Made by a program: the position numbers and the translations under genes
Notes under the pieces: model-generated
Seen by the model: the letters and a program-made list of their open reading frames with translations, nothing else
Told to the model about the DNA's origin: nothing
The model's database searches: none
DNA from: a virus
Reading direction: 5' to 3' (one strand)
DNA length: 64,000 nt
IMG/VR virus record: IMGVR_UViG_3300049830_000285
Coordinates: 113,709-177,708 of that record
Shown: positions 6,276 to 63,760 of the stretch, piece after piece
Position numbering within the stretch: the first letter of the stretch is position 1
Layout: each line of letters begins with the position of its first letter

Positions 6276-7057
6276 TCTAAAACGACATGTGGATATTGTG
6301 CTACATCATCAAGCAAATCTTGATTGGAAAATTGTTTTCTGTTAATAGTTCTCCAACCATTGCTTGAAAGTGTTTTGTCCGAGGGACAGATGCTTCTCGT
6401 GGTTCTTCCATGCTCACCGTAATGCAAAATTTGAGCATTGTGAATTCTGTCATGTGGATTTTTCGACCTATCAAGGCGAATAAAATCATCTTCAAGAAAT
6501 CTCTCCAATCGCACTCTAAATGCCCACATTAATTCTCCATGGCAAACAATTACAACGTTTTTGTCACCAGAATATTCACGATGTAAAGTGTCTAACACTC
6601 TATCTACGCGAAGGCAAAGATTAGAAATTGATTCTCCGTTTGGCGGAGCACCATAAAATGGGTCTTCTTGCTTGAAAGAAGAAGCGCCTGTTCTTTCAAC
6701 AAAATCGCGTAATCCGACATCTCCCCAATCTCGCTCACGAAGATATGGTTCAACTTTCCATTGGGCATCTTTAAGATTTAAAGCAGCAGCGGTTTCTTTT
6801 GCGCGAACAAAATCAGATACAAAAAAACCATCGAATTTCAGCTTGATGTTATGCCTTAAATAATCGCCAGCCACTTCAGCTTGTTGGTGACCAAGTTCGG
6901 TTAATCGCCACTTCGAACCAGTTCTGCTCAATACAGATTTGTCTAATGCATCGAATTGCCTAGTTCCTTGGCGCAATTCATGCACCAATTTGTTAAATTC
7001 TGATTCACCATGTCGAACTAAGATGATATTTTTTGGTAACACATTATATGTTACCAT
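6272..7057 (-). CDS. Histidine phosphatase (phosphoglycerate mutase) family protein
   Basis: RHGES motif, SDFVRAKET, LRER, and VCHG catalytic His. Confidence 0.9.
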   Translation of the reverse strand: MVTYNVLPKNIILVRHGESEFNKLVHELRQGTRQFDALDKSVLSRTGSKWRLTELGHQQAEVAGDYLRHNIKLKFDGFFVSDFVRAKETAAALNLKDAQWKVEPYLRERDWGDVGLRDFVERTGASSFKQEDPFYGAPPNGESISNLCLRVDRVLDTLHREYSGDKNVVIVCHGELMWAFRVRLERFLEDDFIRLDRSKNPHDRIHNAQILHYGEHGRTTRSICPSDKTLSSNGWRTINRKQFSNQDLLDDVAQYPHVVLD

Positions 7058-23984: not shown

Positions 23985-24395
23985 ATGTACCCACTTTACA
24001 AAGACATTCGAGAGAAACTTGGCGCTCCGTTATGGCATGATTCTCACGGCGTTCCACGCTACGCTGAGTTTCATCCAAGTCTCTTAGGAGTATACGATGA
24101 GTACGCCGTACTCTTCTTGGTGCAATGCCAATCTTGTCATCAAGTTTTTCCCTGCGCCGTTGGACATTCAAAACATGTTTTCACTAGCGAAATGAAGGTT
24201 TTGAAAGATGTGCATGAATTTATTCAAGATTATGTTGGTTGGGGCGATGCTCCACACCATGAAGATATTCCACAATGTGCTGGAACTACTATGAGTACAA
24301 GTGTAGTAAAATTGCTCAGTGTTTGGGAGAAAAATCGTCACTGGGAACAAGTTGAAATTACTCAATCTATGACCGATTTAGTAACTGATTACTAG
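23985..24395 (+). CDS. Hypothetical protein
   Basis: TTGAGC-17-TATAAT with ATG 6 nt downstream. Confidence 0.6.
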   Translation: MYPLYKDIREKLGAPLWHDSHGVPRYAEFHPSLLGVYDEYAVLFLVQCQSCHQVFPCAVGHSKHVFTSEMKVLKDVHEFIQDYVGWGDAPHHEDIPQCAGTTMSTSVVKLLSVWEKNRHWEQVEITQSMTDLVTDY

Positions 24396-24616
24396 ACTAT
24401 ACTTTCCACAAAGATGTAAGTTTCCAACCCATTTTACGAACTTTTTCTGCCGCTCGGTCGCAATATTCGCAAAATTCGATATTCACCCATTTGCCGCCAT
24501 CGACTTTGTACATGTGAATATCCCCTTGACAGGGCTGCTCGTCGCTAGACGCGCATTTTTCTTTGGTGCATGCCATAATAGTTGGATACAAAAGGAGAGC
24601 TTGTATTTGAGGAAAA

Positions 24617-24691
24617 TGGTGGGCCACGAAGGAATCGAACCTTGTCCTACACCGTGTCGAGGTATTGTACTACCATTATACGTCGCAGCCC
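24617..24691 (-). tRNA. tRNA-Val(GAC)
   Basis: Cloverleaf, loop UC-GAC-AC, encoded CCA. Confidence 0.85.
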
Positions 24692-24696
24692 GTTGT

Positions 24697-25014
24697 TTAT
24701 CGCGATTTAAAATATTTGTTTTGCGGCATATACCAGAAATCTGGACTGTTAAATTCTTCGTAATATGCCCACACTTCGCCCATAAAGATATCAGTAATAC
24801 CTTGGTCAATACATTCTTTCATAGAGTGTACGCTTAAAACATTTGATATTCTGCCTTGTGAATCAACTCCGAATGCTATCCATCGTGCTTCATCTGACGA
24901 CCTAAAGTTGTATGTCTTAATGACATCGGCTTCAAAGCCTTTTTCTTTTAGTAAAGCTGCTAATCGTGCAGTAAGTGTGTTCGGCTTTACATTCGCCACA
25001 ATCATTTTAGCCAT
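24697..25014 (-). CDS. Hypothetical protein
   Basis: 105-aa ORF. Confidence 0.5.
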   Translation of the reverse strand: MAKMIVANVKPNTLTARLAALLKEKGFEADVIKTYNFRSSDEARWIAFGVDSQGRISNVLSVHSMKECIDQGITDIFMGEVWAYYEEFNSPDFWYMPQNKYFKSR

Positions 25015-25036
25015 TGGTTGCTACTCACTCTTGATG

Positions 25037-25546
25037 TTAATATGATGATTTTAGTTCCACAACTAAATGAGGGTAAAGAATGGCGAGCGAAACGTTGTCC
25101 TCTCCATCGTGATTTCTCACTCCCAAAAACTGTGCTTGTGGCAATATAAATTGTGAATTTTCCGGGCATTCATCTGAAGTTAGAACTTCCATTCCAAGAC
25201 GATGAGCTTTGCGCTCCGACGATGGATGACTTATTAAGTATACGCAATCCATATAATTTTCTAATATACACATTGCGCGATTAATCTCAGAACTCACATT
25301 CGAAGGATTGATTTCAATAGCCTTTTGCAACATTTTAATTAAGGCAGCATCTTCATTTTCAATCTCGTCTTGCCATGTTATAAATTCCTCAGCATGTATA
25401 ACCTTCGCCTCTCCATCGCGCCAAATAACGGCACATTGTTGCTCAACACCCTCTGGTGGTTCAATACTATATCTCGTGTTACAATACAGGTCATCAAACA
25501 AAACTTTTTTGGTTAATTCATTCATGCCTTTATTATACACAATCAC
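25037..25546 (-). CDS. Capsid-like paralog fragment (C-terminal half-like)
   Basis: YLISHPS..EVLTSDECPENSQFILPQAQFLGV parallels 54754-55986. Confidence 0.4.
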   Translation of the reverse strand: MIVYNKGMNELTKKVLFDDLYCNTRYSIEPPEGVEQQCAVIWRDGEAKVIHAEEFITWQDEIENEDAALIKMLQKAIEINPSNVSSEINRAMCILENYMDCVYLISHPSSERKAHRLGMEVLTSDECPENSQFILPQAQFLGVRNHDGEDNVSLAILYPHLVVELKSSY

Positions 25547-25555
25547 TGATTATAA

Positions 25556-25631
25556 TGGTACTCAGAACAGGAGTCGAACCTGCATAAAACTCCTTGTAAC
25601 GAAGCTGTTACTGCCTTTGCACTATCTGAGC
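25556..25631 (-). tRNA. tRNA-Val(TAC)
   Basis: Cloverleaf, loop GU-UAC-AA (unusual G32), CCA. Confidence 0.75.
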
Positions 25632-25632
25632 A

Positions 25633-25953
25633 TTAATTGAAGGCTAAATCGCTGAGTATCTTGTCGTAGATACCACCCATTCCTTCTTCCTGTTGCTGAA
25701 CAAGTTTGACAATATCTCGAATAACTTCTGAAGTGTTGGAGTTGATGTCAATATGTATTCTGTTTTTTTCATTGCTTAATTCCAAAAAATAACAACCCTC
25801 GTTGCCAACTACTACCTTCCATTCTCCAACAAATGTTTGCCATCTGTCGTATCCTCGGTTAATCCGAGTCCATTTGAGTTTATTGTCACAAGTTTTCTTT
25901 TCGATTTCTTCGGCAATTTTCATTTGCTTATGGCTGTATTCTGTCATAAGCAT
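25633..25953 (-). CDS. Hypothetical protein
   Basis: ORF between tRNAs. Confidence 0.5.
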   Translation of the reverse strand: MLMTEYSHKQMKIAEEIEKKTCDNKLKWTRINRGYDRWQTFVGEWKVVVGNEGCYFLELSNEKNRIHIDINSNTSEVIRDIVKLVQQQEEGMGGIYDKILSDLAFN

Positions 25954-25969
25954 CAGTTTACCATAAAAA

Positions 25970-26055
25970 TGGTCGGCATGGCAGGACTCGAACCTACGTG
26001 AACTTTCGCTTCCATCTTATCAGGATGGCACTCTACCAATCTGAGTTACACGCCG
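25970..26055 (-). tRNA. tRNA-Ile(GAT) with long variable arm
   Basis: CCAUC-CUGAUAA-GAUGG anticodon arm; 14-nt variable region AAGCGAAAGUUCAC; CCA. Confidence 0.85.
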
Positions 26056-26058
26056 AAA

Positions 26059-26544
26059 TTATTCTGTTTTCAAGCATTGAGCTATTTGCTTGATTAAGGT
26101 GTCAGAAGTGACATAGGAGGCTAAACTGCAATAAAGAGAAGAAGACTGAAGTTCAGCAATGTAAGAATTAACCTTGGCAACAAGTTCTTCAATGGCTTTC
26201 TTCTCAGTGCTATTTTTGTATTTGTAAGCCTTAATGATATCTAGTTTTTGTGTGAAAAATTCTATGTCAAACGTAGCATCTACATTACCAATGTCAATAA
26301 GCTTTACTCCCTCAAATTGCTGGATGATATTTCGCTCATCTGGAGTCGTTGAACAAGTTACCATTGGGCCTTCAATAAAAACGTGCATGCCCATATAATC
26401 ATAAATTTGCACTTGATGCAATCGCGCAAACATGAGCGACATGTAGTCTTCATCTTCCAAAAAGATTTTGGTGTATTGGACTTCAGTTTTCTCTTCACCT
26501 AAGGTTCGAAAAGAACGACATGTGCTATGGCTAATCATAGTCAC
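26059..26544 (-). CDS. Hypothetical protein
   Basis: 161-aa ORF. Confidence 0.5.
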   Translation of the reverse strand: MTMISHSTCRSFRTLGEEKTEVQYTKIFLEDEDYMSLMFARLHQVQIYDYMGMHVFIEGPMVTCSTTPDERNIIQQFEGVKLIDIGNVDATFDIEFFTQKLDIIKAYKYKNSTEKKAIEELVAKVNSYIAELQSSSLYCSLASYVTSDTLIKQIAQCLKTE

Positions 26545-26586
26545 AGCATACCTGAAAGTTGTTGCCGTTTTTAGGCGGCAACAATC

Positions 26587-26982
26587 TCATTTTCGTCGCT
26601 CGAAGCTCACCTCAACAGAATAGTATGTATCCAGATTAGCGCACCAACGAATCACGAGTGACCCCTTGAATGTACCAATACGGTAAAACGTCCACAGCAA
26701 ATCTGAATCGTCTTCCGAAGAAGATTCATCAGCATATGCGACTGGGGCTCCGACGAGACTTTGTGGGTCTCCGCAGATATCCTCAATGTAAACGAGTTCA
26801 CAGCAATCCTGCCCGTGATACATGATGTAAGACTCCGTTTCGTCTACAGTAAACACGATTTCGTCGCGATTTACCTTGACATCACTTAATATCTTTCCAA
26901 CAAGGTCACTGAACTTTGGCGATGGTTGTCTAGTTGTTTGTATGTTTGTCATATCAATGTCGCGCAACAAACTATAGAACAA
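26587..26982 (-). CDS. Conserved phage hypothetical protein
   Basis: YHGQDCCELVYIEDICGD motif. Confidence 0.65.
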   Translation of the reverse strand: MFYSLLRDIDMTNIQTTRQPSPKFSDLVGKILSDVKVNRDEIVFTVDETESYIMYHGQDCCELVYIEDICGDPQSLVGAPVAYADESSSEDDSDLLWTFYRIGTFKGSLVIRWCANLDTYYSVEVSFERRK

Positions 26983-27080
26983 TTCTAATATACTTCAAAA
27001 ACCACCACTTATAAGCTTTTTTTGATTATTTTTTAAAAAGGCCTGAATTTCCGTGTCTCCATTGTCGTTTTATATATGTA

Positions 27081-27338
27081 ATGAAAAACTTACGTAACAT
27101 TAACCTCTCGCCAAAAACACAATCCGAAGTCTACGCTTGGATGACTTGCGCAATTCTCGCGCACACTCGAATGGGCGTTAGTTTTACTCCCAAGGGAGCG
27201 AAACTCGCAAAGGAGATTAAAATGGCTCCTGAAGCATTTTTAAAGGTAGTGGATGAGCTACAGAAAGAGAATGCGTTCGGCTTCACTGAGTTAACAAGCG
27301 AAGAAGCGGAAGAGCTTAAACGTTGGGTGAAAGAATAA
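27081..27338 (+). CDS. Hypothetical protein
   Basis: 85-aa ORF. Confidence 0.5.
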   Translation: MKNLRNINLSPKTQSEVYAWMTCAILAHTRMGVSFTPKGAKLAKEIKMAPEAFLKVVDELQKENAFGFTELTSEEAEELKRWVKE

Positions 27339-27356
27339 CATCATGTTGAAAAAATT

Positions 27357-27435
27357 TGGTGGAGGATACGGGATTCCAACCCGTCTGTTTTCTTCCTTGC
27401 AAAAGAAGCGACCACCGCCAGTAGTCCTATCCCCC
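27357..27435 (-). tRNA. tRNA-Ala(TGC)
   Basis: G3.U70 pair, loop UU-UGC-AA, T-loop UUGGAAU, CCA. Confidence 0.8.
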
Positions 27436-27792
27436 ATATTGTGACGTTGTTTCGTATGAATCATCAACGTCAAGTTTGTCATCCACTTTTGTGGATTTGT
27501 GAATGTCTCGCCACCCATAAGCGCGTGTCCTGGGATTGCACAATCCGCAATCCCAGGAACATCCAACAAATTTCTTTTTGCCCTCGTGTCTCCACTTGCC
27601 TTCGTTTCTGTAAAGGCGACGAAAGCATTTGGTGACAAATTCGTGGTTAGTTGGAACCAAGATGTAGCCTCTCTCTGGATGGCGAACATACATCTCAGTT
27701 TCCTGAGATTCTTCTGCCCACCAACTACGATTCCAAATACGTCGTTTAATTAACGCAGTTTTTGCTCTGCGTTCAGCTCTTGTGTGTTTCAT
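27427..27792 (-). CDS. Hypothetical basic protein
   Basis: 121-aa ORF with CSWDCGLC; overlaps the tRNA 5' end. Confidence 0.5.
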   Translation of the reverse strand: MKHTRAERRAKTALIKRRIWNRSWWAEESQETEMYVRHPERGYILVPTNHEFVTKCFRRLYRNEGKWRHEGKKKFVGCSWDCGLCNPRTRAYGWRDIHKSTKVDDKLDVDDSYETTSQYGG

Positions 27793-27902
27793 TATCCTGT
27801 CTTAGATGGCTATGCCGTCTAATACACAGAATGTTTTCCAAAGTATTTCATGAGTTCATTATACTACGAAATACTCACGTTGAGGAAATTTGGTGGAGGA
27901 GG

Positions 27903-28619
27903 TTATCTTAATCTCGATTTTCGACCATTGCCTTTATTTAAAATACCGTATGTTGGAGTTAACGCATGACAATTTGGGCAAATCAATTCTAGGTTTATTT
28001 CTTTAGAATCTGTTGAATCGCCGTTAATATGATTTACTTGTAACGGAATCTTTTTAGTAATAGGATGCTTTTTTGACCATCCACATTGTGAACATTGCGC
28101 TCGATATTTTTCATGTAAAAACCTTCTAATATGATTGCTTATTCCCCCGCTTTTAGTGTTTCCAGAAATTTCACCTTGCTGCCATTTCGCAATGTAATTT
28201 TCATATTGTAAATTTTTTCGATGAATAGTACAATATTTTGAACCTGTAGTTTTAACATTGCAAATACAACAATGATATGTTCGCTTAATAGCTTGTCCGT
28301 AGAAAGATGGTTTAATGTTTGGCAGCCCATCAATAGATTGCGCCTTGTCTTTACATATTCTAGAACAAAAGTGAAGTCCTGATTTGCTTCTTGAAAATTT
28401 GCTTTTTGACCGCGTTATTGTTTGATTACACCAAGCACAAAATTTTTCAATATTAGTGATTAAATTGACATGCTTTTGTCGGCACTCACGAGAGCAAAAA
28501 TGAGATGGATGTTTGTTAATCTCTTTGTTTAATTTAAGAAAAGTTTTTTCACAACCAGTACATGTGACTTCTGAAGCTGAGCGATTTTTACCGTAACTAT
28601 CTTTGATATATAGGTTCAT
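27903..28619 (-). CDS. HNH homing endonuclease with N-terminal Cys/Zn repeats
   Basis: CxxC and HFCSRxC repeats; LQVNHING..NLELICPNCH. Confidence 0.88.
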   Translation of the reverse strand: MNLYIKDSYGKNRSASEVTCTGCEKTFLKLNKEINKHPSHFCSRECRQKHVNLITNIEKFCAWCNQTITRSKSKFSRSKSGLHFCSRICKDKAQSIDGLPNIKPSFYGQAIKRTYHCCICNVKTTGSKYCTIHRKNLQYENYIAKWQQGEISGNTKSGGISNHIRRFLHEKYRAQCSQCGWSKKHPITKKIPLQVNHINGDSTDSKEINLELICPNCHALTPTYGILNKGNGRKSRLR

Positions 28620-28672
28620 AATATAGCATTTAATCCGTTGGTGGAGTATACCTTCTTTGCGCTGTGTAAAAA

Positions 28673-28748
28673 TGGTGGAGATAGCGAGATTTGAACTCGC
28701 AACCTATTCAATGCCATTGAATTGCTCTCCCAATTGAGCTATATCCCC
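28673..28748 (-). tRNA. tRNA-Ala(GGC)
   Basis: Cloverleaf, G3.U70, loop AU-GGC-AU, CCA. Confidence 0.92.
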
Positions 28749-28759
28749 AGTTGATATCT

Positions 28760-28833
28760 TGGTCGGCATACTAAGAATCGAACTTAGATAAATCGGTTAT
28801 CAGCCGAACCCTCTACCATTGAGGTATATGCCG
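28760..28833 (-). tRNA. tRNA-Ile(GAT)
   Basis: Loop CU-GAU-AA, CCA. Confidence 0.85.
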
Positions 28834-28837
28834 AGGT

Positions 28838-28911
28838 TGGTAGGCAGTGAAGGAATCAAACCTTCACTTCTCCCTAATCAGGGGAGCAGTCTATCATTAA
28901 CTTAACCGCCC
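28838..28911 (-). tRNA. tRNA-Ile(GAT), U37 variant
   Basis: CUCCC-CUGAUUA-GGGAG, CCA. Confidence 0.8.
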
Positions 28912-28926
28912 ATGTGTGGAATAAAT

Positions 28927-29005
28927 TGGTGGAGGGCACGAGACTCGAACTCGTCTGCTGTCCATATTGCAAGTATGGCAATCACACCAGGCAATTCCGC
29001 CCCCC
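28927..29005 (-). tRNA. tRNA-Ala(TGC)
   Basis: G3.U70, CCAUA-CUUGCAA-UAUGG, CCA. Confidence 0.85.
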
Positions 29006-29022
29006 ATGTGTGATTAAAATTG

Positions 29023-29097
29023 TGGTGGGCGATGAGGGATTCGAACCCCCGACCAATAGAATGTAAATCTACTGCGCTTCCGCTGCGCCAATCGCCC
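29023..29097 (-). tRNA. tRNA-Val(TAC)
   Basis: Cloverleaf, loop UU-UAC-AU, CCA; 5' end overlaps the HNH C-terminus. Confidence 0.88.
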
Positions 29098-29437
29098 TTG
29101 GTATTTCACACAATCCAGCGTGAATTTTAGCATGACAGTTTCTACATACCAAAACGCATTTATCCATTTCAGCTTGTAGTCTTTTCAGTGAAACCATCTT
29201 TCTGACCAATGTTGCTACACAATCATCTTTGTCTTTAAGATGGTGAAAATCTAAACATACGATTTCTGATTCTCCACAACAAACACAAGGATTTTTTTGC
29301 TTCCATGCGTCTACATGGGCTTTATTTCTTTCTCGCTTACCCTGTCTATGGAATTTAGCATTTTCTTTTTTTCGTGCAGCATTTACTGGATTAGCATACC
29401 AATTTTGGTGATAGATTTTTCTTTCTTCGGCGTTCAT
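29069..29437 (-). CDS. HNH endonuclease (tRNA-associated)
   Basis: CVCCG..CLDFHH..EMDKCVLVCRNCHAKIH. Confidence 0.85.
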   Translation of the reverse strand: MNAEERKIYHQNWYANPVNAARKKENAKFHRQGKRERNKAHVDAWKQKNPCVCCGESEIVCLDFHHLKDKDDCVATLVRKMVSLKRLQAEMDKCVLVCRNCHAKIHAGLCEIPRAIGAAEAQ

Positions 29438-29475
29438 AGGTGTTTATTCTTATACATATGTTTACACACCTCTTT

Positions 29476-29517
29476 TCTCCGTGTAAAAGAGTAACTCTAC
29501 CGCTGAGTTAATCGCCC
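29476..29517 (-). pseudogene. Orphan 5' fragment of a tRNA-Val(TAC)
   Basis: GGGCGAUU acceptor strand, D arm ACUC/GAGU, anticodon loop UU-UAC-AC; no T arm follows. Confidence 0.75.
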
Positions 29518-29604
29518 GTAAAAGACGGAAAGCGAAAACCATATTGCCTATCGAACCCAACTTAATGGGATTAGAAGTAATGACTTTCATAGCCGCCTAA
29601 ATCT

Positions 29605-29679
29605 TGGTATCCGCACTGAGACTTGAACTCAGAACCTTTCGCTAATCAGGCAAACGCGCTACCATTGCGCCATACGGAT
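29605..29679 (-). tRNA. tRNA-Ile(GAT), U37 variant
   Basis: UUUGC-CUGAUUA-GCGAA, CCA. Confidence 0.85.
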
Positions 29680-29697
29680 ATATCGGTGGATTAAAAT

Positions 29698-29772
29698 TGG
29701 TGGGCAGTGTGAGAATCGAACTCACTTCGTTTCCGTGTAAGAGAAACTCTATTACCAAATTGATAACCGCCC
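29698..29772 (-). tRNA. tRNA-Val(TAC)
   Basis: UUUCU-CUUACAC-GGAAA, CCA. Confidence 0.82.
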
Positions 29773-29924
29773 AGATTGACTAGTCGCCCGAGAAAGATTA
29801 AAATATATACGATTGTTCTGTCACGCAGTATTTTTGCATATATTTTAATCAAAATGCCAGATTAGAAAGTATGGTGTTTTACCCTTTTCTTGGGAAATAT
29901 GCCATGTTTTTTAATCTGAGAAAA

Positions 29925-29999
29925 TGGTACCAACGGGGGGAATCGAACCCCGCCCCCGAGAAGGTATGAACTTCTGGCCCTTTGCCCAAGGTCGTTGGC
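29925..29999 (-). tRNA. tRNA-CAT (Met or Ile2), atypical D arm
   Basis: AGAAG-UUCAUAC-CUUCU, normal T arm, CCA. Confidence 0.7.
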
Positions 30000-30057
30000 A
30001 TGTATTGATTTATCATGGGATGGAAGTTTGGGTACTTCCATCCCTCGCAATCAGCTC

Positions 30058-30077
30058 TATTCGGTTTTCAAAGTGCA
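30058..30077 (-). promoter_or_regulatory. boxA-like antitermination element
   Basis: UGCACUUUGAAAACCGAAUA between the attenuator and the first tRNA. Confidence 0.6.
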
Positions 30078-30106
30078 TTGTGAACTTTCGTTCGGTGTAT
30101 AAATCT

Positions 30107-30148
30107 AAAAAAAAAGAAGGATTCGGTCTTTCTGACCGAATCCTTCTT
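30107..30148 (-). terminator. Attenuator terminator of the Met/Val/Ile/Ala tRNA operon
   Basis: 15-bp stem AAGAAGGAUUCGGUC/GACCGAAUCCUUCUU followed by a U tract. Confidence 0.9.
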
Positions 30149-30171
30149 GCATTTCTCTTTGCTTGTGGAAC

Positions 30172-30249
30172 TTAGGTCAGAACGTCCTCTGCGATAATCG
30201 CAGCGGCTACAACAATTGCCATGACCATAATGTTTCTGTTGTATCTCAT
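30172..30249 (-). CDS. Attenuator leader peptide MRYNRNIMVMAIVVAAAIIAEDVLT (not in the ORF track)
   Basis: 14 consecutive Ile/Met/Val/Ala codons; AAGGA upstream; the stop region pairs with the terminator 5' arm. Confidence 0.85.
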   Translation of the reverse strand: MRYNRNIMVMAIVVAAAIIAEDVLT

Positions 30250-30276
30250 TTTCGTTCTTTGTTCCTTTTTAAAATC

Positions 30277-30353
30277 TGGGTGCGAGCTGCTGGAATCTAA
30301 CCAACCTACCGGGGTTTATGAGACCTCGCTCGTCAACAGTAGAGTAAGCCGCA
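30277..30353 (-). tRNA. tRNA-Met(CAT)-like, atypical
   Basis: GAGGU-CUCAUAA-ACCCC, bulged acceptor stem, T-loop UUAGAUU, CCA. Confidence 0.6.
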
Positions 30354-30358
30354 TATTC

Positions 30359-30400
30359 ATTATGCACTGTCAATATGCATTTGTCAACAACATTTGAGGA
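30359..30400 (-). promoter_or_regulatory. Sigma70-like promoter with upstream TCCTCA
   Basis: TCCTCA-7-TTGACA-17-CATAAT. Confidence 0.8.
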
Positions 30401-30421
30401 TTTTTTCAAATCTTTTTGTTT

Positions 30422-30700
30422 TTAGCCTAAAACTGGAATGTCTTCAGCTTCATAACGTGTTGTACTTGACCATCCTTCTGGCGACTGCTCTTTGCACTCA
30501 AAGGCAACACATCTGTTTCGACCAGACTGAGCAGTTTGCTGATATGGGCGATTTTTACCATTACCAGTTGTCATCATCGGCTGAAATTCCCCCAATGACT
30601 TGACATTCTCTATGCCATATTTTTCTTCAAGATAATGTCTGACTTTATATTCAGTTGTAAAATTGCCGATTCTTTGGCTTGCAAAAGTGAGTAACCACAT
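30422..30700 (-). CDS. Hypothetical protein
   Basis: 92-aa ORF. Confidence 0.5.
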   Translation of the reverse strand: MWLLTFASQRIGNFTTEYKVRHYLEEKYGIENVKSLGEFQPMMTTGNGKNRPYQQTAQSGRNRCVAFECKEQSPEGWSSTTRYEAEDIPVLG

Positions 30701-30905
30701 AACTGAATTATAGCATAGATTCAGTTAGGCGTCTTCCAATCATCATTTGAATCATTATAAGGAGACTTGCGTGGCAGATATCCAAGTGCTATTTCTGCCT
30801 GTCTCAAAGTATTCTGTCCGCGTTTCCATCCTCGAAAAGAGTCATCCTCTTCAACAGCTTCGTACAAATTCTTAAGCGCTCGTCTTAATGTATCTTCAGT
30901 TTCGT

Positions 30906-31166
30906 TCATGGCTGATTTCTATTGTACAGAGTTACTTCTTTATCGCAACCACTACAGAAATATTTCTTTTCAAAGAGTGATTTGGAAAGGATGGTGGTGA
31001 TATCGTATCCCTCTCCATTTCGCAGCACGACACAATCTATCAGCACATTGTGGATTTTACCGTCAGCATCGACCTCTTCATGCATAAACTGTGCGTCATC
31101 GCAAATTAGCATATAGGGATAGTCAGTGTGGTCGGTAACAAGTTCAGGATTTTCTGTATTGAACAT
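30906..31166 (-). CDS. Hypothetical protein
   Basis: 86-aa ORF. Confidence 0.5.
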   Translation of the reverse strand: MFNTENPELVTDHTDYPYMLICDDAQFMHEEVDADGKIHNVLIDCVVLRNGEGYDITTILSKSLFEKKYFCSGCDKEVTLYNRNQP

Positions 31167-31178
31167 GTTCTTAGTATA

Positions 31179-31541
31179 TCACAATTCATCATCTTTCATC
31201 TTAGCGTGAAGTTTAGCGTGACAATTGCGACAAATCACAATGCATTTATCCATTTCCGCCTGTAGTACGGCAATGGATACTGGTCTTTTTGCCATATCGG
31301 ATATATTGCCAGATTTGTTTCCAATATGATGAAAGTCTAAACAAACAATATCAGATTCCCCGCAAGCGCACGGATTTACCATTCTGTATTCATCTATATA
31401 CTGTTTGTTTCGGTTGCGATGAAGTTCTTTGTGAATTTTTGCAGTAGCTTTTTGCTTAGCCTGATATTCTGGCTCTGCATAGCGTTTTTTGTGATACGAG
31501 GCTTGATATGCTTTTTTATCTTCCGTTGATTTGGGTGGCAT
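31179..31541 (-). CDS. HNH endonuclease (tRNA-associated), paralog of 29069-29437
   Basis: CACG..CLDFHH..EMDKCIVICRNCHAKLH. Confidence 0.85.
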   Translation of the reverse strand: MPPKSTEDKKAYQASYHKKRYAEPEYQAKQKATAKIHKELHRNRNKQYIDEYRMVNPCACGESDIVCLDFHHIGNKSGNISDMAKRPVSIAVLQAEMDKCIVICRNCHAKLHAKMKDDEL

Positions 31542-31594
31542 ACCATATCATACCATGTATAACAAAGCCCATCCTTTAGATGGGCTTATAAAAA

Positions 31595-31670
31595 TGGTGC
31601 GGAGGCAAGATTCGAACTTGCGACCTTTGAGGTATGAACCCAACAAGCTACCAGACTGCTCTACTCCGCA
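31595..31670 (-). tRNA. tRNA-Met(CAT), initiator-like
   Basis: GAGCAGUCUGGUAGCU D arm, GGG in the anticodon stem, CAU; own TTGATA-17-TATAAT promoter. Confidence 0.85.
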
Positions 31671-31719
31671 ATATCATTATACCAACATAATCACCACTTA
31701 TCAACTATTTTGAGAAAAA

Positions 31720-32586
31720 ATGTATAAAGCTATTGAATTCGTTGATGAAACGAGTCAAAAATTGCCAAGTGATGAGCTTGGCGGAGACATTACGATGAGT
31801 AATACAAATAATTCAGCCATAGATGCTATCTATGAAGGAATGGTGGAATCCATTCACGGAATCGACATTACTACTGTTTACAGAGAAGAGCAAAAAGATT
31901 CTCTCTGGCATAGGATATGTGACTTCAAAACATATCCATTTACAGAATACTTTATGTTAGAGGGAAATACTGGCCCTATTTTCATAAGAGTTTCAGATAA
32001 ATTAATGACGGCTGGCGGATTAGCAGCAACTTACATTCCAAAAATAACTATTGCCACAAATCCAACAATCAGGTTAGAAGAACTGCGCAAAATGCATGAT
32101 TTTGAAAATCTAATACGTTTTGCCTGTCATCGTCTACATACTCAAATTGATATGGAGTTGATTAAGATTCTTCTTGAGACACACAAAGATAGTCACGAAC
32201 TTGAAGAATATACGACCATGATAATGAGCGCGGAAACATGTGAGCAGTTGATTGGTGAGCCTATTGATTGCTCGTTTCATACTCACAAAGGTTATTCATA
32301 TAAAATTCCATTAAGAGGAATGGTGCCGACATGGGTGGTGGAAGACACTGAATTCACCAAACTAAGTCTTGACAAATCTGTGGTTATAGACTTTCAACAT
32401 GATGGGAAGAAAATAATCATCAGCAATGAAATGCCACCAGACACTATCATTAAGTTAAATGACAATCCAGTTGGTATTGTTTGTTCCCGCGAGATTGTCT
32501 ATGCCATGCCCTGTCCTGAGCCAAAAAGATTAAGACTTGGAGCAGTGATTTCTGATGAAATAGGAGTAGGCGTTTACGGCTCTTGA
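31720..32586 (+). CDS. Divergent capsid-like paralog
   Basis: PTIRLEELRK and PEPKRLRLGAVISDEIGVGV match the other capsid-like ORFs in this window. Confidence 0.5.
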   Translation: MYKAIEFVDETSQKLPSDELGGDITMSNTNNSAIDAIYEGMVESIHGIDITTVYREEQKDSLWHRICDFKTYPFTEYFMLEGNTGPIFIRVSDKLMTAGGLAATYIPKITIATNPTIRLEELRKMHDFENLIRFACHRLHTQIDMELIKILLETHKDSHELEEYTTMIMSAETCEQLIGEPIDCSFHTHKGYSYKIPLRGMVPTWVVEDTEFTKLSLDKSVVIDFQHDGKKIIISNEMPPDTIIKLNDNPVGIVCSREIVYAMPCPEPKRLRLGAVISDEIGVGVYGS

Positions 32587-43137: not shown

Positions 43138-43325
43138 TTAACTATTTTACCTTACTTTTTCTTTTTTGGTGCTGGGGCTGGTTTGCCCTTAGGAGCCTGC
43201 GGAGCTGTCTTTGCTTGTTTCTTCTGTTTGTCTTTGCCTTTTGCCATAGTAATAAATCATACTCTATGCGAAATGCTACTTCCTACATAAATCCTCAATA
43301 AATATATGTGTGATATAATATAAGT

Positions 43326-47148: not shown

Positions 47149-47280
47149 GTATGGTTCCAGGCAGTAATGAAATGTTACTAATAGCACTAAGCTGGAATGT
47201 GAGTTATGAAACGGTCACACTCGCTTAGTGGCGAGACTGATTTATGGAGTTAATAAGCAACTATTAGTGTCAGTCCCGAC

Positions 47281-47391
47281 TTAGCGAGTACGCCGACAAC
47301 GTTGCTGGAAAAAGCATCGAGCGCAAGCAACACGAGCAGTGTTCTTGATTTTTGCGCTGTAGTTAGTGATTGTGTTCATGATGCTATTCAT
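47281..47391 (-). CDS. Leader peptide MNSIMNTITNYSAKIKNTARVACARCFFQQRCRRTR (not in the ORF track)
   Basis: 3' half enriched in CGN-Arg, Cys and Gln codons; lies between the promoter and the Gln/Arg/Cys tRNAs. Confidence 0.75.
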   Translation of the reverse strand: MNSIMNTITNYSAKIKNTARVACARCFFQQRCRRTR

Positions 47392-47445
47392 TTTCGTCTC
47401 TCCGAATGCTAAGCCTGGATTATGGGCGGCTTTCCCTTACGTTTT

Positions 47446-47489
47446 ATTATGTCGTGTTCATCTAGCTTTTGTCAACTAGATTTTGAGGA
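47446..47489 (-). promoter_or_regulatory. Sigma70-like promoter with upstream TCCTCA
   Basis: TCCTCA-8-TTGACA-18-CATAAT. Confidence 0.75.
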
Positions 47490-48921: not shown

Positions 48922-49653
48922 CTATTCGTCAATCGCCTCATTTTCTGAGGCGATTATGGCTCTTAATCGCCTCACTCTAGCTCTGGCTAATTCTTCAATA
49001 GCGCCTTTCTTAACTGCAAGGGCACGTTTTGAAGGAATCAAGTCGTAATGATGTGTGCGTTTATCTTGGAACCAACACCATTTAGTTTTATTTTTTGTGA
49101 GGGCAATATCCATACAATCCCAAAGACATGTTGCAATTGTGGCAGAGCACTCGGTAGCCTTCTGGATATTCATTTTTTCTGAGCCAATAATAGAATGAAT
49201 GTCCTCCTTTATTTTTTCCGAACAACTCTCTTCTGTGCTTTCCTCCTCCTCCGTTGATGTGGTCAATACACAAAAATTCTTTAGTGGTTTCTCCACAACA
49301 TTGACATTGGTTTCCGTATGCTTTAAGGGCGGTTGCTCTGTAATCGGCTTGTCTTTGTTTGGTTTGTGATAAAAGTGCGCATCGGTTGTCTTGATAGTAA
49401 TTGCTGTTAAATTCTTTGACACAAGTTTTGCATTTTTGTCCAGCGATTCTTGCTCCACCGCATTTTGAGCATATTGGTTTGTGTAGCGCCATTGCTTACA
49501 TATTGTACATGCAAGTGGTGTTTTTAGCCCAATTAAATCAGCCATAGCGTGCAATTCTTCATCAGAATCGGCTGTCATATGACACCAAACCTTCCATCTC
49601 AGTTTAGTGTCATATGTGCGAAGCTCGTCAACATAAACGCTCATAATTAACAA
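48922..49653 (-). CDS. DUF4031-like protein interrupted by a 441-nt in-frame insertion
   Basis: VYVD..WCHMTAD..ELHAMADLIGLK [147-codon insert] WCWFQ..HYDL..RALAVKKGA. Confidence 0.7.
   Translation of the reverse strand: MLIMSVYVDELRTYDTKLRWKVWCHMTADSDEELHAMADLIGLKTPLACTICKQWRYTNQYAQNAVEQESLDKNAKLVSKNLTAITIKTTDAHFYHKPNKDKPITEQPPLKHTETNVNVVEKPLKNFCVLTTSTEEEESTEESCSEKIKEDIHSIIGSEKMNIQKATECSATIATCLWDCMDIALTKNKTKWCWFQDKRTHHYDLIPSKRALAVKKGAIEELARARVRRLRAIIASENEAIDE
49088..49492 (-). CDS. HNH-like endonuclease nested in another frame inside the DUF4031-like gene
   Basis: YGNQCQCCGE..LCIDHING..LCHNCN. Confidence 0.85.
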   Translation of the reverse strand: MALHKPICSKCGGARIAGQKCKTCVKEFNSNYYQDNRCALLSQTKQRQADYRATALKAYGNQCQCCGETTKEFLCIDHINGGGGKHRRELFGKNKGGHSFYYWLRKNEYPEGYRVLCHNCNMSLGLYGYCPHKK

Positions 49654-50324
49654 TACGTTTCTGTTGTGTTCTCGTAACTCTTAATAGAGTCGTGAACTCG
49701 AACAATACCGAAGTCACTTGATTTCACTTTCACCATTCGACCATCTGGGTGGTGCCAAACGACACCCTCGATATTCTCTTTGGTAAGCTCCTCGCGAATC
49801 TCATCGAAAGTTCTTGGAAAGCTCATAAACGAAATATCACCGTGACTTCGCAAAATGTGGTCTGCTAAGTTCTCGGGATTTTTACCAGCACGAGTTCCAA
49901 TTTTAGGGCCACACAACTCGTATGTACCATTTGGATACATACCTGGATTAGCCTCATAAATACCTAAGACAAGTTTGTCATCTGGCAATTTACATGGAAC
50001 CCAGCCAGGTAAGTGACCTGTAATTGGGTCGAAGTCCTGGAGTTGAATAAAGCCCTCTGGTGGTTTACGGTTGTGAACACGCTTTTCACCAGTTTTATTG
50101 TCGATGGTGAATGCTTTAGCGTCATAGCGCTTAAACAATTGTCCATCTTGAATCATGATGGCAATGCCATCCCATTTACGAGTTGCCGTTCCTTCGCCGT
50201 TCTGCACCCACTCAGTACCAGGCGTCACCTGGTTAATCACTAAGCCGTCGTTGCTGTAATCACGCACGAAGAGAGTTGGAATTTTCTTCATTTTACCTTG
50301 TTGTGAATGAAGTACAGCATTCAC
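49647..50324 (-). CDS. Putative ATP-dependent RNA ligase (RLIG1/C12orf29-like family)
   Basis: MKKIPTLF, ATRKWDG motif I, TYELCG, EGVVW..GRMVKVK. Confidence 0.7.
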   Translation of the reverse strand: MNAVLHSQQGKMKKIPTLFVRDYSNDGLVINQVTPGTEWVQNGEGTATRKWDGIAIMIQDGQLFKRYDAKAFTIDNKTGEKRVHNRKPPEGFIQLQDFDPITGHLPGWVPCKLPDDKLVLGIYEANPGMYPNGTYELCGPKIGTRAGKNPENLADHILRSHGDISFMSFPRTFDEIREELTKENIEGVVWHHPDGRMVKVKSSDFGIVRVHDSIKSYENTTETYC

Positions 50325-50361
50325 TCTGTTCGAATCCCGCCTGCACCAAGGTAATTAGTAT

Positions 50362-50448
50362 ACCCTTCAACGGGAGTGTCCTGCCGTTAGACGACTGAAG
50401 CTTGCGCTAAAGCTGGGAATCGAACCCAGGTTACTCCCTCTGAAGAGT
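50362..50448 (-). ncRNA. Circularly permuted tRNA-like RNA (YrlA-like) module 2
   Basis: Order T arm, acceptor-like hairpin capped by GCAA, D arm; ends close as CUCUUCAG-A-GGGAG/CUCCC-G-UUGAAGGG. Confidence 0.65.
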
Positions 50449-50452
50449 TTCT

Positions 50453-50541
50453 ATCCTATAACGGGCTGCTCTAACCACTGAGCTACACCGCCGCGAACGA
50501 CGATGGTTGGATTTGAACCAACGACATACCCTCTATAGGAC
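50453..50541 (-). ncRNA. Circularly permuted tRNA-like RNA (YrlA-like) module 1
   Basis: T arm GUUGG-UUCAAAU-CCAAC, acceptor CAUCGUC/GGCGGUG capped by G-UUCG-C, D arm GCUC/GAGC, closing stem GUCCUAUAG/UUAUAGGAU. Confidence 0.75.
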
Positions 50542-50593
50542 TTCTTTATTCTTCCTCAACTCTATTGTTTTGTCAACCGATTTTGAGGAAAAA

Positions 50594-63555: not shown

Positions 63556-63597
63556 AAAAAAAGAAGAACTACCAGCTTCTCCTGGTAGTTCTTCTTT
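63556..63597 (-). terminator. Attenuator terminator of the Asn tRNA operon
   Basis: 16-bp stem AAAGAAGAACUACCAG/CUGGUAGUUCUUCUUU plus U tract, 3 nt before tRNA-Asn. Confidence 0.9.
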
Positions 63598-63627
63598 AAG
63601 TTTCCTTTTTTTGAAGTGGCGCTTGTG

Positions 63628-63696
63628 TTACTCAGCGCTTCTACCAGTGGCTGGTGAAGTATTAGCGTTATTATTATTGCTGAGAGTGTAAAGCAT
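63628..63696 (-). CDS. Attenuator leader peptide MLYTLSNNNNANTSPATGRSAE (not in the ORF track)
   Basis: 5 Asn codons within 6 positions; contains CUGGUAG complementary to the terminator 5' arm. Confidence 0.85.
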   Translation of the reverse strand: MLYTLSNNNNANTSPATGRSAE

Positions 63697-63717
63697 GATT
63701 GCGTTTCCTATTGACTT

Positions 63718-63760
63718 ATTGTATCCTCTGTGTTATCTTGTTGTCAACTGTTTTTGAGGA
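63718..63760 (-). promoter_or_regulatory. Sigma70-like promoter with upstream TCCTCA
   Basis: TCCTCA-7-TTGACA-18-TACAAT. Confidence 0.75.

Follow-up and report, generated by a model that had tools for sequence, protein, structure and literature searches.

Why a block of tRNA genes in an uncultured giant phage should stand behind a short open reading frame rich in the amino acids that those tRNAs carry is the question raised by this locus. The sequence analysed (the window) is the last 64 kb of a 177.7-kb IMG/VR virus record (IMGVR_UViG_3300049830_000285), rated 47% complete by CheckV and with a GC content of about 40%. The window encodes a LysRS-like class II synthetase, a glutamine-dependent NAD synthase, an ADP-ribosylglycohydrolase and, according to ARAGORN, 20 tRNA genes, all on the minus strand and sorted by amino acid (Val/Ile/Ala, Met, Cys, Arg/Cys/Gln and Asn). 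The closest complete relative found is a 378,848-bp phage (G001), whose NAD synthase is 51-54% identical and which carries 33 tRNAs and a tmRNA; this is a jumbo phage. The comparisons described below suggest that the Met/Ile/Val/Ala array is most likely governed by a trp-style, ribosome-mediated transcription attenuator, such that the phage probably makes these tRNAs only when ribosomes read the corresponding codons slowly.

Elements of the leader region and the tRNA array

All of the elements given in the preliminary description are present on the minus strand, and are as follows.

30359 to 30400, minus strand: promoter, with a TCCTCAAA upstream element (30400-30393), -35 TTGACA (30387-30382), a 17-nt spacer and -10 CATAAT (30364-30359), matching the consensus at 11 of 12 positions.
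30277 to 30353, minus strand: tRNA-like element with a CAU anticodon at the 5' end of the transcript, upstream of the leader and therefore outside attenuation control.
30172 to 30249, minus strand: leader ORF of 25 codons plus UAA, encoding MRYNRNIMVMAIVVAAAIIAEDVLT.
30190 to 30231, minus strand: codons 7-20 of the leader, 14 consecutive Ile/Met/Val/Ala codons (AUU AUG GUC AUG GCA AUU GUU GUA GCC GCU GCG AUU AUC GCA), with all four Ala, three Val and two Ile codons plus AUG.
30186 to 30206, minus strand: predicted hairpin inside the coding run (CC-G-CUGCGA-UUA-UCGCAG-A-GG), a possible RNA polymerase pause hairpin.
30168 to 30182, minus strand: predicted antiterminator 5' strand, comprising UUCUGACC (30182-30175), the UAA stop (30174-30172) and AGUUC (30172-30168).
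30107 to 30148, minus strand: predicted intrinsic terminator with a 15-bp stem, the 5' arm AAGAAGGAUUCGGUC (30148-30134), the 5-nt loop AGAAA (30133-30129), the 3' arm (30128-30114) and a U7 tract (30113-30107); GGAUU (30143-30139) and GGUCAGAA (30137-30130) form the antiterminator 3' strand.
30017 to 30044, minus strand: 11-bp hairpin without a U tract (GGGAUGGAAGU-ACCCAA-ACUUCCAUCCC) between the terminator and the first downstream tRNA-like gene, which may be a processing site.
24617 to 29996, minus strand: the array of twelve tRNA genes, namely tRNA-like(CAU) 29996-29925, Val 29772, Ile 29679, Val 29097, Ala 29005, Ile 28911, Ile 28833, Ala 28748, Ala 27435, Ile 26055, Val 25631 and Val(GAC) 24691-24617, interspersed with small ORFs that include an HNH-like endonuclease.

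Three points of the preliminary description require correction. The sequence GGUCAGAA, which is the Watson-Crick complement of UUCUGACC and had been placed in the 5' arm of the terminator, comprises the last 4 nt of that arm plus 4 nt of the loop. The pairing also extends further than described, as AGUUC just after the stop pairs with GGAUU of the arm. Finally, the two CAU 'tRNAs' at 30353-30277 and 29996-29925 are sub-threshold: both are called by ARAGORN only at -ps95, the first scores 21.7 bits in Rfam (E=1.2) and the second has no Rfam hit. All of the other tRNAs down to 24617 are Val(UAC/GAC), Ile(GAU) or Ala(UGC/GGC), and every codon of the run can be read by the anticodons of the array (GAU, CAU, UAC, GAC, UGC and GGC). 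No promoter-like site was found on this strand between the terminator and 29152, suggesting that expression of at least the proximal array should depend on read-through. The purine-rich AAGGAA lies 14-15 nt upstream of the AUG, which is far for a Shine-Dalgarno site; most genes of this phage lack a clear one.

Leaders matched to their arrays within and between phages

To determine whether the composition of the leader could be due to chance, every ATG ORF of 8-70 codons in all six frames of the whole record (2558 ORFs) was scored for its best run of a given set of amino acids. The 30249-30172 ORF ranks first for an I/V/A/M run, with a score of 17.9 compared to 9.9 for the next ORF. Two other arrays in the window follow the same plan of promoter, codon-matched mini-ORF and hairpin.

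63556 to 63760, minus strand: promoter 63760-63718; leader 63696-63628 (MLYTLSNNNNANTSPATGRSAE), containing NNNNAN; a 1:2 hairpin; CUGGUAG complementary to CUACCAG of a 16-bp, U-tailed terminator (63597-63556); then the tRNA-Asn genes.
47149 to 47489, minus strand: promoter 47489-47446; leader 47391-47281 (ending in ARVACARCFFQQRCRRTR); then tRNA-Gln x3, Arg(GCG), Cys and Arg(UCG), with alternative helices but no U-tract terminator.

The Asn leader ranks 1 and the Gln/Arg/Cys leader ranks 3 of 2558 for their own sets. As only 4, 2 and 4 small ORFs lie in the 450 nt upstream of the three arrays, the joint chance is estimated to be about 6e-9. In G001, leaders ranking 1, 1-2, 1 and 4 of 1492 stand before a Gly-Ser-Thr-Asp array, a Gln-Gln-Arg-Arg-Cys array, a 12-tRNA array (Trp-Ser-Ile-Phe-Glu-Glu-Ala-Pro-Val-Val-Pro-Tyr) and tRNA-Leu, respectively, although several single tRNA genes in G001 have no matched leader. 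In a cross-matrix of nine leaders against six amino-acid sets, every leader scores best with its own array. The match is also seen at the codon level, as all 11 Arg codons in the two Gln/Arg/Cys leaders (6 of them in the window) are CGN, against 57-59% genome-wide, and these arrays carry only the Arg anticodons UCG and GCG. The QQRCRR core of the Gln/Arg/Cys leader is conserved in G001 with synonymous changes, whereas an exact-pattern search for this core in viral contigs otherwise returned only chance hits inside unrelated genes.

Searches of viral contigs with the NAD synthase found only G001, while a metagenome scan with the NAD synthase alignment gave the phage contigs L090, L093 and L095. 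The NAD synthases of L090 and L095 are 76% and 51% identical to that of the window, respectively, and both contigs carry a Met/Ile/Val/Ala array with a homologous cassette.

L090: leader MNKNNMNMAVVIIAAAAIMVAADVLT, with the run MAVVIIAAAAIMVAA; terminator AAGAAGGCUCGGUCAGAAAGACUGAGCCUUCUU followed by U7.
L095: leader MYSTRQNAIMAAVAVAAMIIAGTVLT, with the run AIMAAVAVAAMIIA; terminator GAAGAGGCUCGGUCAGAAAGACCGAGCCUCUU followed by a U-rich tract.

L090 also keeps the TCCTCAAA-TTGACA promoter and the tRNA-like(CAU) element, the latter with compensatory changes in the acceptor and anticodon stems, while in L095 the leader follows a tRNA-Met (called at -ps95, the only threshold run on these loci). 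The leader ORF is 25-26 codons in the three cassettes, with in-frame length differences, and the runs are 14-15 codons long. The order of the run is scrambled, yet all 43 run residues are I/V/A/M and no Leu or Phe appears, although each is one base change away. By contrast, GUUCUGACC plus a stop codon (UAA, UAA and UGA) and GGUCAGAAAGAC in the terminator, loop included, are invariant, while the spacer between them diverges in sequence and length. This pattern fits selection on codon class and on two RNA pairing partners and does not fit selection on a peptide sequence. Hairpins within the coding run are predicted at the same place but with different sequence in all three, and hairpins equivalent to that at 30017-30044, again of different sequence, lie at the same place in L090 and L095.

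Predicted alternative structures and the attenuation model

The minimum-energy fold of the full-length transcript shows only the terminator, which is more stable (-24.7 kcal/mol) than the antiterminator, indicating that the switch must be kinetic. The transcript was therefore folded as it would exist with the ribosome held upstream and before the 3' arm has been made, and this gave an antiterminator in all three homologues, consisting of UUCUGACC:GGUCAGAA plus an extension between the post-stop bases and the middle of the 5' arm.

Window cassette: extension AGUUC:GGAUU, -15.3 kcal/mol.
L090: extension AGU/CUUCU:AGAAG/GCU, -20.5 kcal/mol.
L095: extension GAGUC:GGCUC, -19.2 kcal/mol.

The RNAalifold consensus keeps 12 of 12 antiterminator pairs in all three sequences. 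The terminator consensus has 14 pairs, six with changes on both sides, although the MAFFT register in the basal stem is shifted by an indel and some of these double changes may reflect register and not strict covariation. In shuffle tests, the 8-nt perfect complement of this cassette (duplex of -15.2 kcal/mol) has p=0.009, the complementarity in the Asn cassette has p=0.011, and the Fisher combined p over the five cassettes with canonical terminators is 3e-6. In each of the five the complementary strand lies 0-13 nt upstream of the stop, and the minimum-energy structure of the partial transcript is the antiterminator, at -15 to -21 kcal/mol.

These findings support the interpretation in the preliminary description, in which stalling within the run frees the antiterminator whereas translation to the stop codon allows termination. 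In the proposed sequence of events, transcription from the 30387-30359 promoter first yields the tRNA-like(CAU) RNA and then the leader. If Ile-, Val-, Ala- or Met-tRNA is scarce, the ribosome stalls in codons 7-20, UUCUGACC-UAA-GUUC emerges unprotected and pairs with GGAUUC-GGUCAGAA before the 3' arm is transcribed, and RNA polymerase reads through into the twelve CAU/Val/Ile/Ala tRNA genes. If those codons are decoded quickly, the ribosome reaches UAA and covers that segment, the 15-bp hairpin plus U7 forms and transcription stops at about 30107. The result would be a negative feedback loop on decoding capacity for exactly the codons that the array serves, with loss of host tRNAs during infection or through tRNA-cleaving defences as a possible trigger. 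By geometry only, stalls at codons 7-17 would end at least 4 nt upstream of the antiterminator strand if the footprint reaches about 13 nt past the A site, while stalls at codons 18-20 would partly cover it. On comparing the three homologues, no conserved anti-antiterminator (1:2 pairing) sequestering UUCUGACC was evident. The AGAACG of the 5' UTR that pairs with CGUUCU in the fold of the window's cassette is absent in L090 and L095. The untranslated state may therefore read through, unlike trp. The AAGGAA sequence is 9-18 nt upstream of the AUG in the three phages. Translation of the ORF, terminator activity, the kinetic competition and the response to charged tRNA are inferred. Based on this comparative evidence, and in the absence of experimental or transcript data, we put the probability of the attenuation model at about 0.8.

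More broadly, and somewhat less securely but still more likely than not, giant phages of this lineage may run a modular sensing system in which each amino-acid-sorted tRNA array is switched on by its own mini-ORF that tests ribosome speed on the codons the array decodes. This would give homeostatic control of the phage's private tRNA pool, and could also be an inducible answer to loss of host tRNAs, whether from host shut-off or from tRNA-cleaving immune nucleases. If true, phage tRNA arrays are demand-regulated and not simply co-expressed with early or late genes, phages monitor host decoding capacity codon family by codon family, and the sorting of tRNA genes into amino-acid-specific arrays has a regulatory reason. 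This bears on why large phages carry tRNAs at all, including the idea that they replace tRNAs destroyed by host defences (PMC12409363). The leaders also offer a sequence-only read-out of which tRNAs a cassette controls, which would help to annotate degenerate tRNA-like genes.

Related systems and alternative explanations

The layout resembles that of the multivalent leader-peptide attenuators of enterobacterial amino-acid operons, such as ilvGMEDA (ilvL: Ile/Leu/Val) and thrL (Thr/Ile), and of trpL, hisL, leuL and pheL (the last described in PMC3082878), which likewise appear to combine a promoter, a short ORF with a dense run of regulatory codons and an intrinsic terminator whose 5' arm pairs alternatively with a segment next to the leader's stop codon, the ribosome's position deciding the outcome. 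Here, however, the controlled genes are tRNAs and not biosynthetic enzymes, so the loop closes on decoding capacity rather than amino-acid supply; the element is phage-encoded, the codon set mirrors the array's anticodons, Leu is absent and a tRNA-like RNA precedes the leader. The pheM leader of the E. coli pheST operon is probably likewise an attenuator regulating a component of the decoding machinery for the same amino acid that the leader tests, but it is chromosomal, tests a single amino acid and controls a tRNA synthetase protein. T-box riboswitches also use a terminator/antiterminator switch that reports tRNA status and controls translation-related genes, but bind uncharged tRNA directly through a specifier codon and need no translation, whereas the sensing element here is an ORF; no T-box hit was obtained at the gathering threshold over the window or at E<=10 over 24000-32000, and no other Rfam cis-regulator was found. 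Large phages, including T4, T5 and huge phages (PMC7162821), carry tRNA arrays interspersed with small ORFs and homing-endonuclease-like genes, but here the arrays are sorted by amino acid and each multi-tRNA array has its own sensor. No description of leader-peptide attenuation of tRNA genes was found in full-text searches that did not extend to subscription journals, and neither PMC11025619 nor PMC7162821 mentions attenuators or leader peptides for these arrays.

Of the alternatives, the one that survives best, although unlikely, is that the mini-ORF does sense decoding of the cognate codons but that the output is not intrinsic termination, the alternative structures instead controlling RNase processing or stability of the precursor, or Rho access, and so setting tRNA yield after transcription. 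The Gln/Arg/Cys cassettes of the window's phage and of G001 have conserved alternative helices that involve the stop-codon region but no U-tract terminator, and their output step may differ; the conserved hairpin without a U tract between the terminator and the first tRNA in all three I/V/A/M cassettes would also be consistent with this possibility. However, the cassette described here and four others carry textbook intrinsic terminators, with 13-16 bp stems and U7-9 tracts, whose 5' arms are the leader's pairing partner. This alternative cannot be excluded.

It is very doubtful that the ORF encodes a small hydrophobic membrane peptide, such as a type I toxin-like or holin-modulating peptide, whose position before the array is incidental. 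The 14-residue I/M/V/A stretch is hydrophobic, is flanked by polar and charged residues like a short transmembrane segment, and sits in a self-contained promoter-ORF-terminator unit. However, 14 residues is short for a membrane span, the 43 run residues of the three homologues include no Leu, Phe, Gly or Trp, although Ile, Val and Met are each one base change from Leu, the conserved parts are RNA pairing partners and not peptide positions, and the sister leaders are polar yet match their arrays equally well.

The least likely alternative is that the terminator only ends a short transcript carrying the 5' tRNA-like(CAU) RNA, which starts at about +1 of the promoter, with the ORF being untranslated filler of chance composition and the array driven by other promoters such as the promoter-like site at 29152-29124, as the rank of the ORF, the diagonal leader/array matrix, the conserved ORF length and stop position, the significant complementarity and the lack of a promoter-like site between the terminator and the first tRNAs all argue against it.

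A generic leader scan over 41 loci that carry the array's HNH-like gene found a matched leader in only one further family (L052/L053), so the design is lineage-specific and not universal to phage tRNA arrays. Among the neighbouring genes, a 288-aa protein had no relatives in viral contigs and the 92-aa ORF just upstream has no homologue among 5.8 billion proteins. A boxA-like motif noted downstream of the terminator did not recur above chance (2 matches against 1.2 expected). The TCCTCAAA-N5/6-TTGACA layout heads the three cassettes of the window and one further tRNA-like cassette, but TCCTCAAA alone is not specific to tRNA cassettes and is a general promoter-associated motif of this phage, with about 28 copies before many genes.

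A further promoter, a boxA-like sequence and a recurrent motif

Minus strand, 50330-50589: a fourth TCCTCAAA-TTGACA promoter followed by several degenerate tRNA-like fragments
49647-50324: an ORF with a weak T4 RnlA RNA-ligase hit
Minus strand, 30058-30077: UGCACUUUGAAAACCGAAUA, a boxA-like sequence just after the terminator
Minus strand, e.g. 39069, 33569, 40756 and 48631: copies of TTTCCTCAAAA

In the fourth TCCTCAAA-TTGACA promoter region the tRNA-like fragments, which are T-arm and D-arm pieces, are found in place of a leader, and the next feature is the ORF with the weak RnlA hit (E=8e-4). In the whole of G000 (the virus record that contains the window), TTTCCTCAAAA occurs about 28 times, mostly 25-40 nt upstream of gene starts and often followed by a TATAAT-like box, and is probably the signature of one promoter class of this phage. 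UGCACUUUGAAAACCGAAUA resembles boxA; a motif search revealed no recurrence above chance, with 2 matches against 1.2 expected.

Leaders and ORFs before other tRNA genes

Minus strand, 47149-47280: the Gln/Arg/Cys cassette, with alternative helices
Minus strand, 43152-43247: a Lys-rich 31-codon ORF (MAKGKDKQKKQAKTAPQAPKGKPAPAPKKKK and a stop codon) directly before a lone tRNA-Cys
L093:6513-6700 and 6791-6830: leader MINKNATIIEGANAVVAIRPAVVNVAPEHSWFIEPRGGLS with a stop codon, and a terminator
L053:8355-8477, reverse strand (also L052, L060, L061): a leader ending in THTATTMSVRATAFAGGIDIVIDTIAATAAAA and a stop codon

The Gln/Arg/Cys cassette has no U-tract terminator. The stop region ACUCGCUAAGU can pair with ACUAAGCGAGU, in competition with a downstream hairpin, and a GGGACUGA/UCAGUCUC helix covaries with that of the related phage G001 (GGGCUGA/UUAGCCC). 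The Lys-rich ORF does not match the tRNA-Cys that it precedes and no tRNA-Lys is present in the window; the LysRS-like gene lies 4.4 kb further on the same strand.

In L093, a locus from the metagenome scan, the leader and terminator precede His-His-Pro-Pro-Pro-Ile-Ala-Ile-Val tRNAs, and a second mini-ORF starting MEDDHHH runs into the first tRNA-His gene. The His residue in the leader tracks the His tRNAs, and G001 lacks both. In an unrelated phage family (L053, also L052, L060 and L061), the leader lies 50 nt before an Ala x3, Cys, Asp x2, Thr x3 array, and no canonical terminator was found in the 60 nt examined after the stop codon.

A probable homing endonuclease and amber-reading tRNAs

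Minus strand, 27903-28619: a Cys-rich 238-aa ORF inside the tRNA array
G000:C1:43328-43402 (outside the window) and L036:8066-8859: tRNA genes with a CUA (amber-reading) anticodon

The Cys-rich ORF is probably an HNH-type homing endonuclease, although it gave only a weak ZorE-like hit. Of 41 viral contigs with relatives, 32 have tRNA genes in the fetched flanks. G000 has a tRNA with the CUA anticodon, and G001 has two such genes, next to a tmRNA with tag AENNFAFAA. This finding suggests amber suppression or stop-codon recoding in this lineage.
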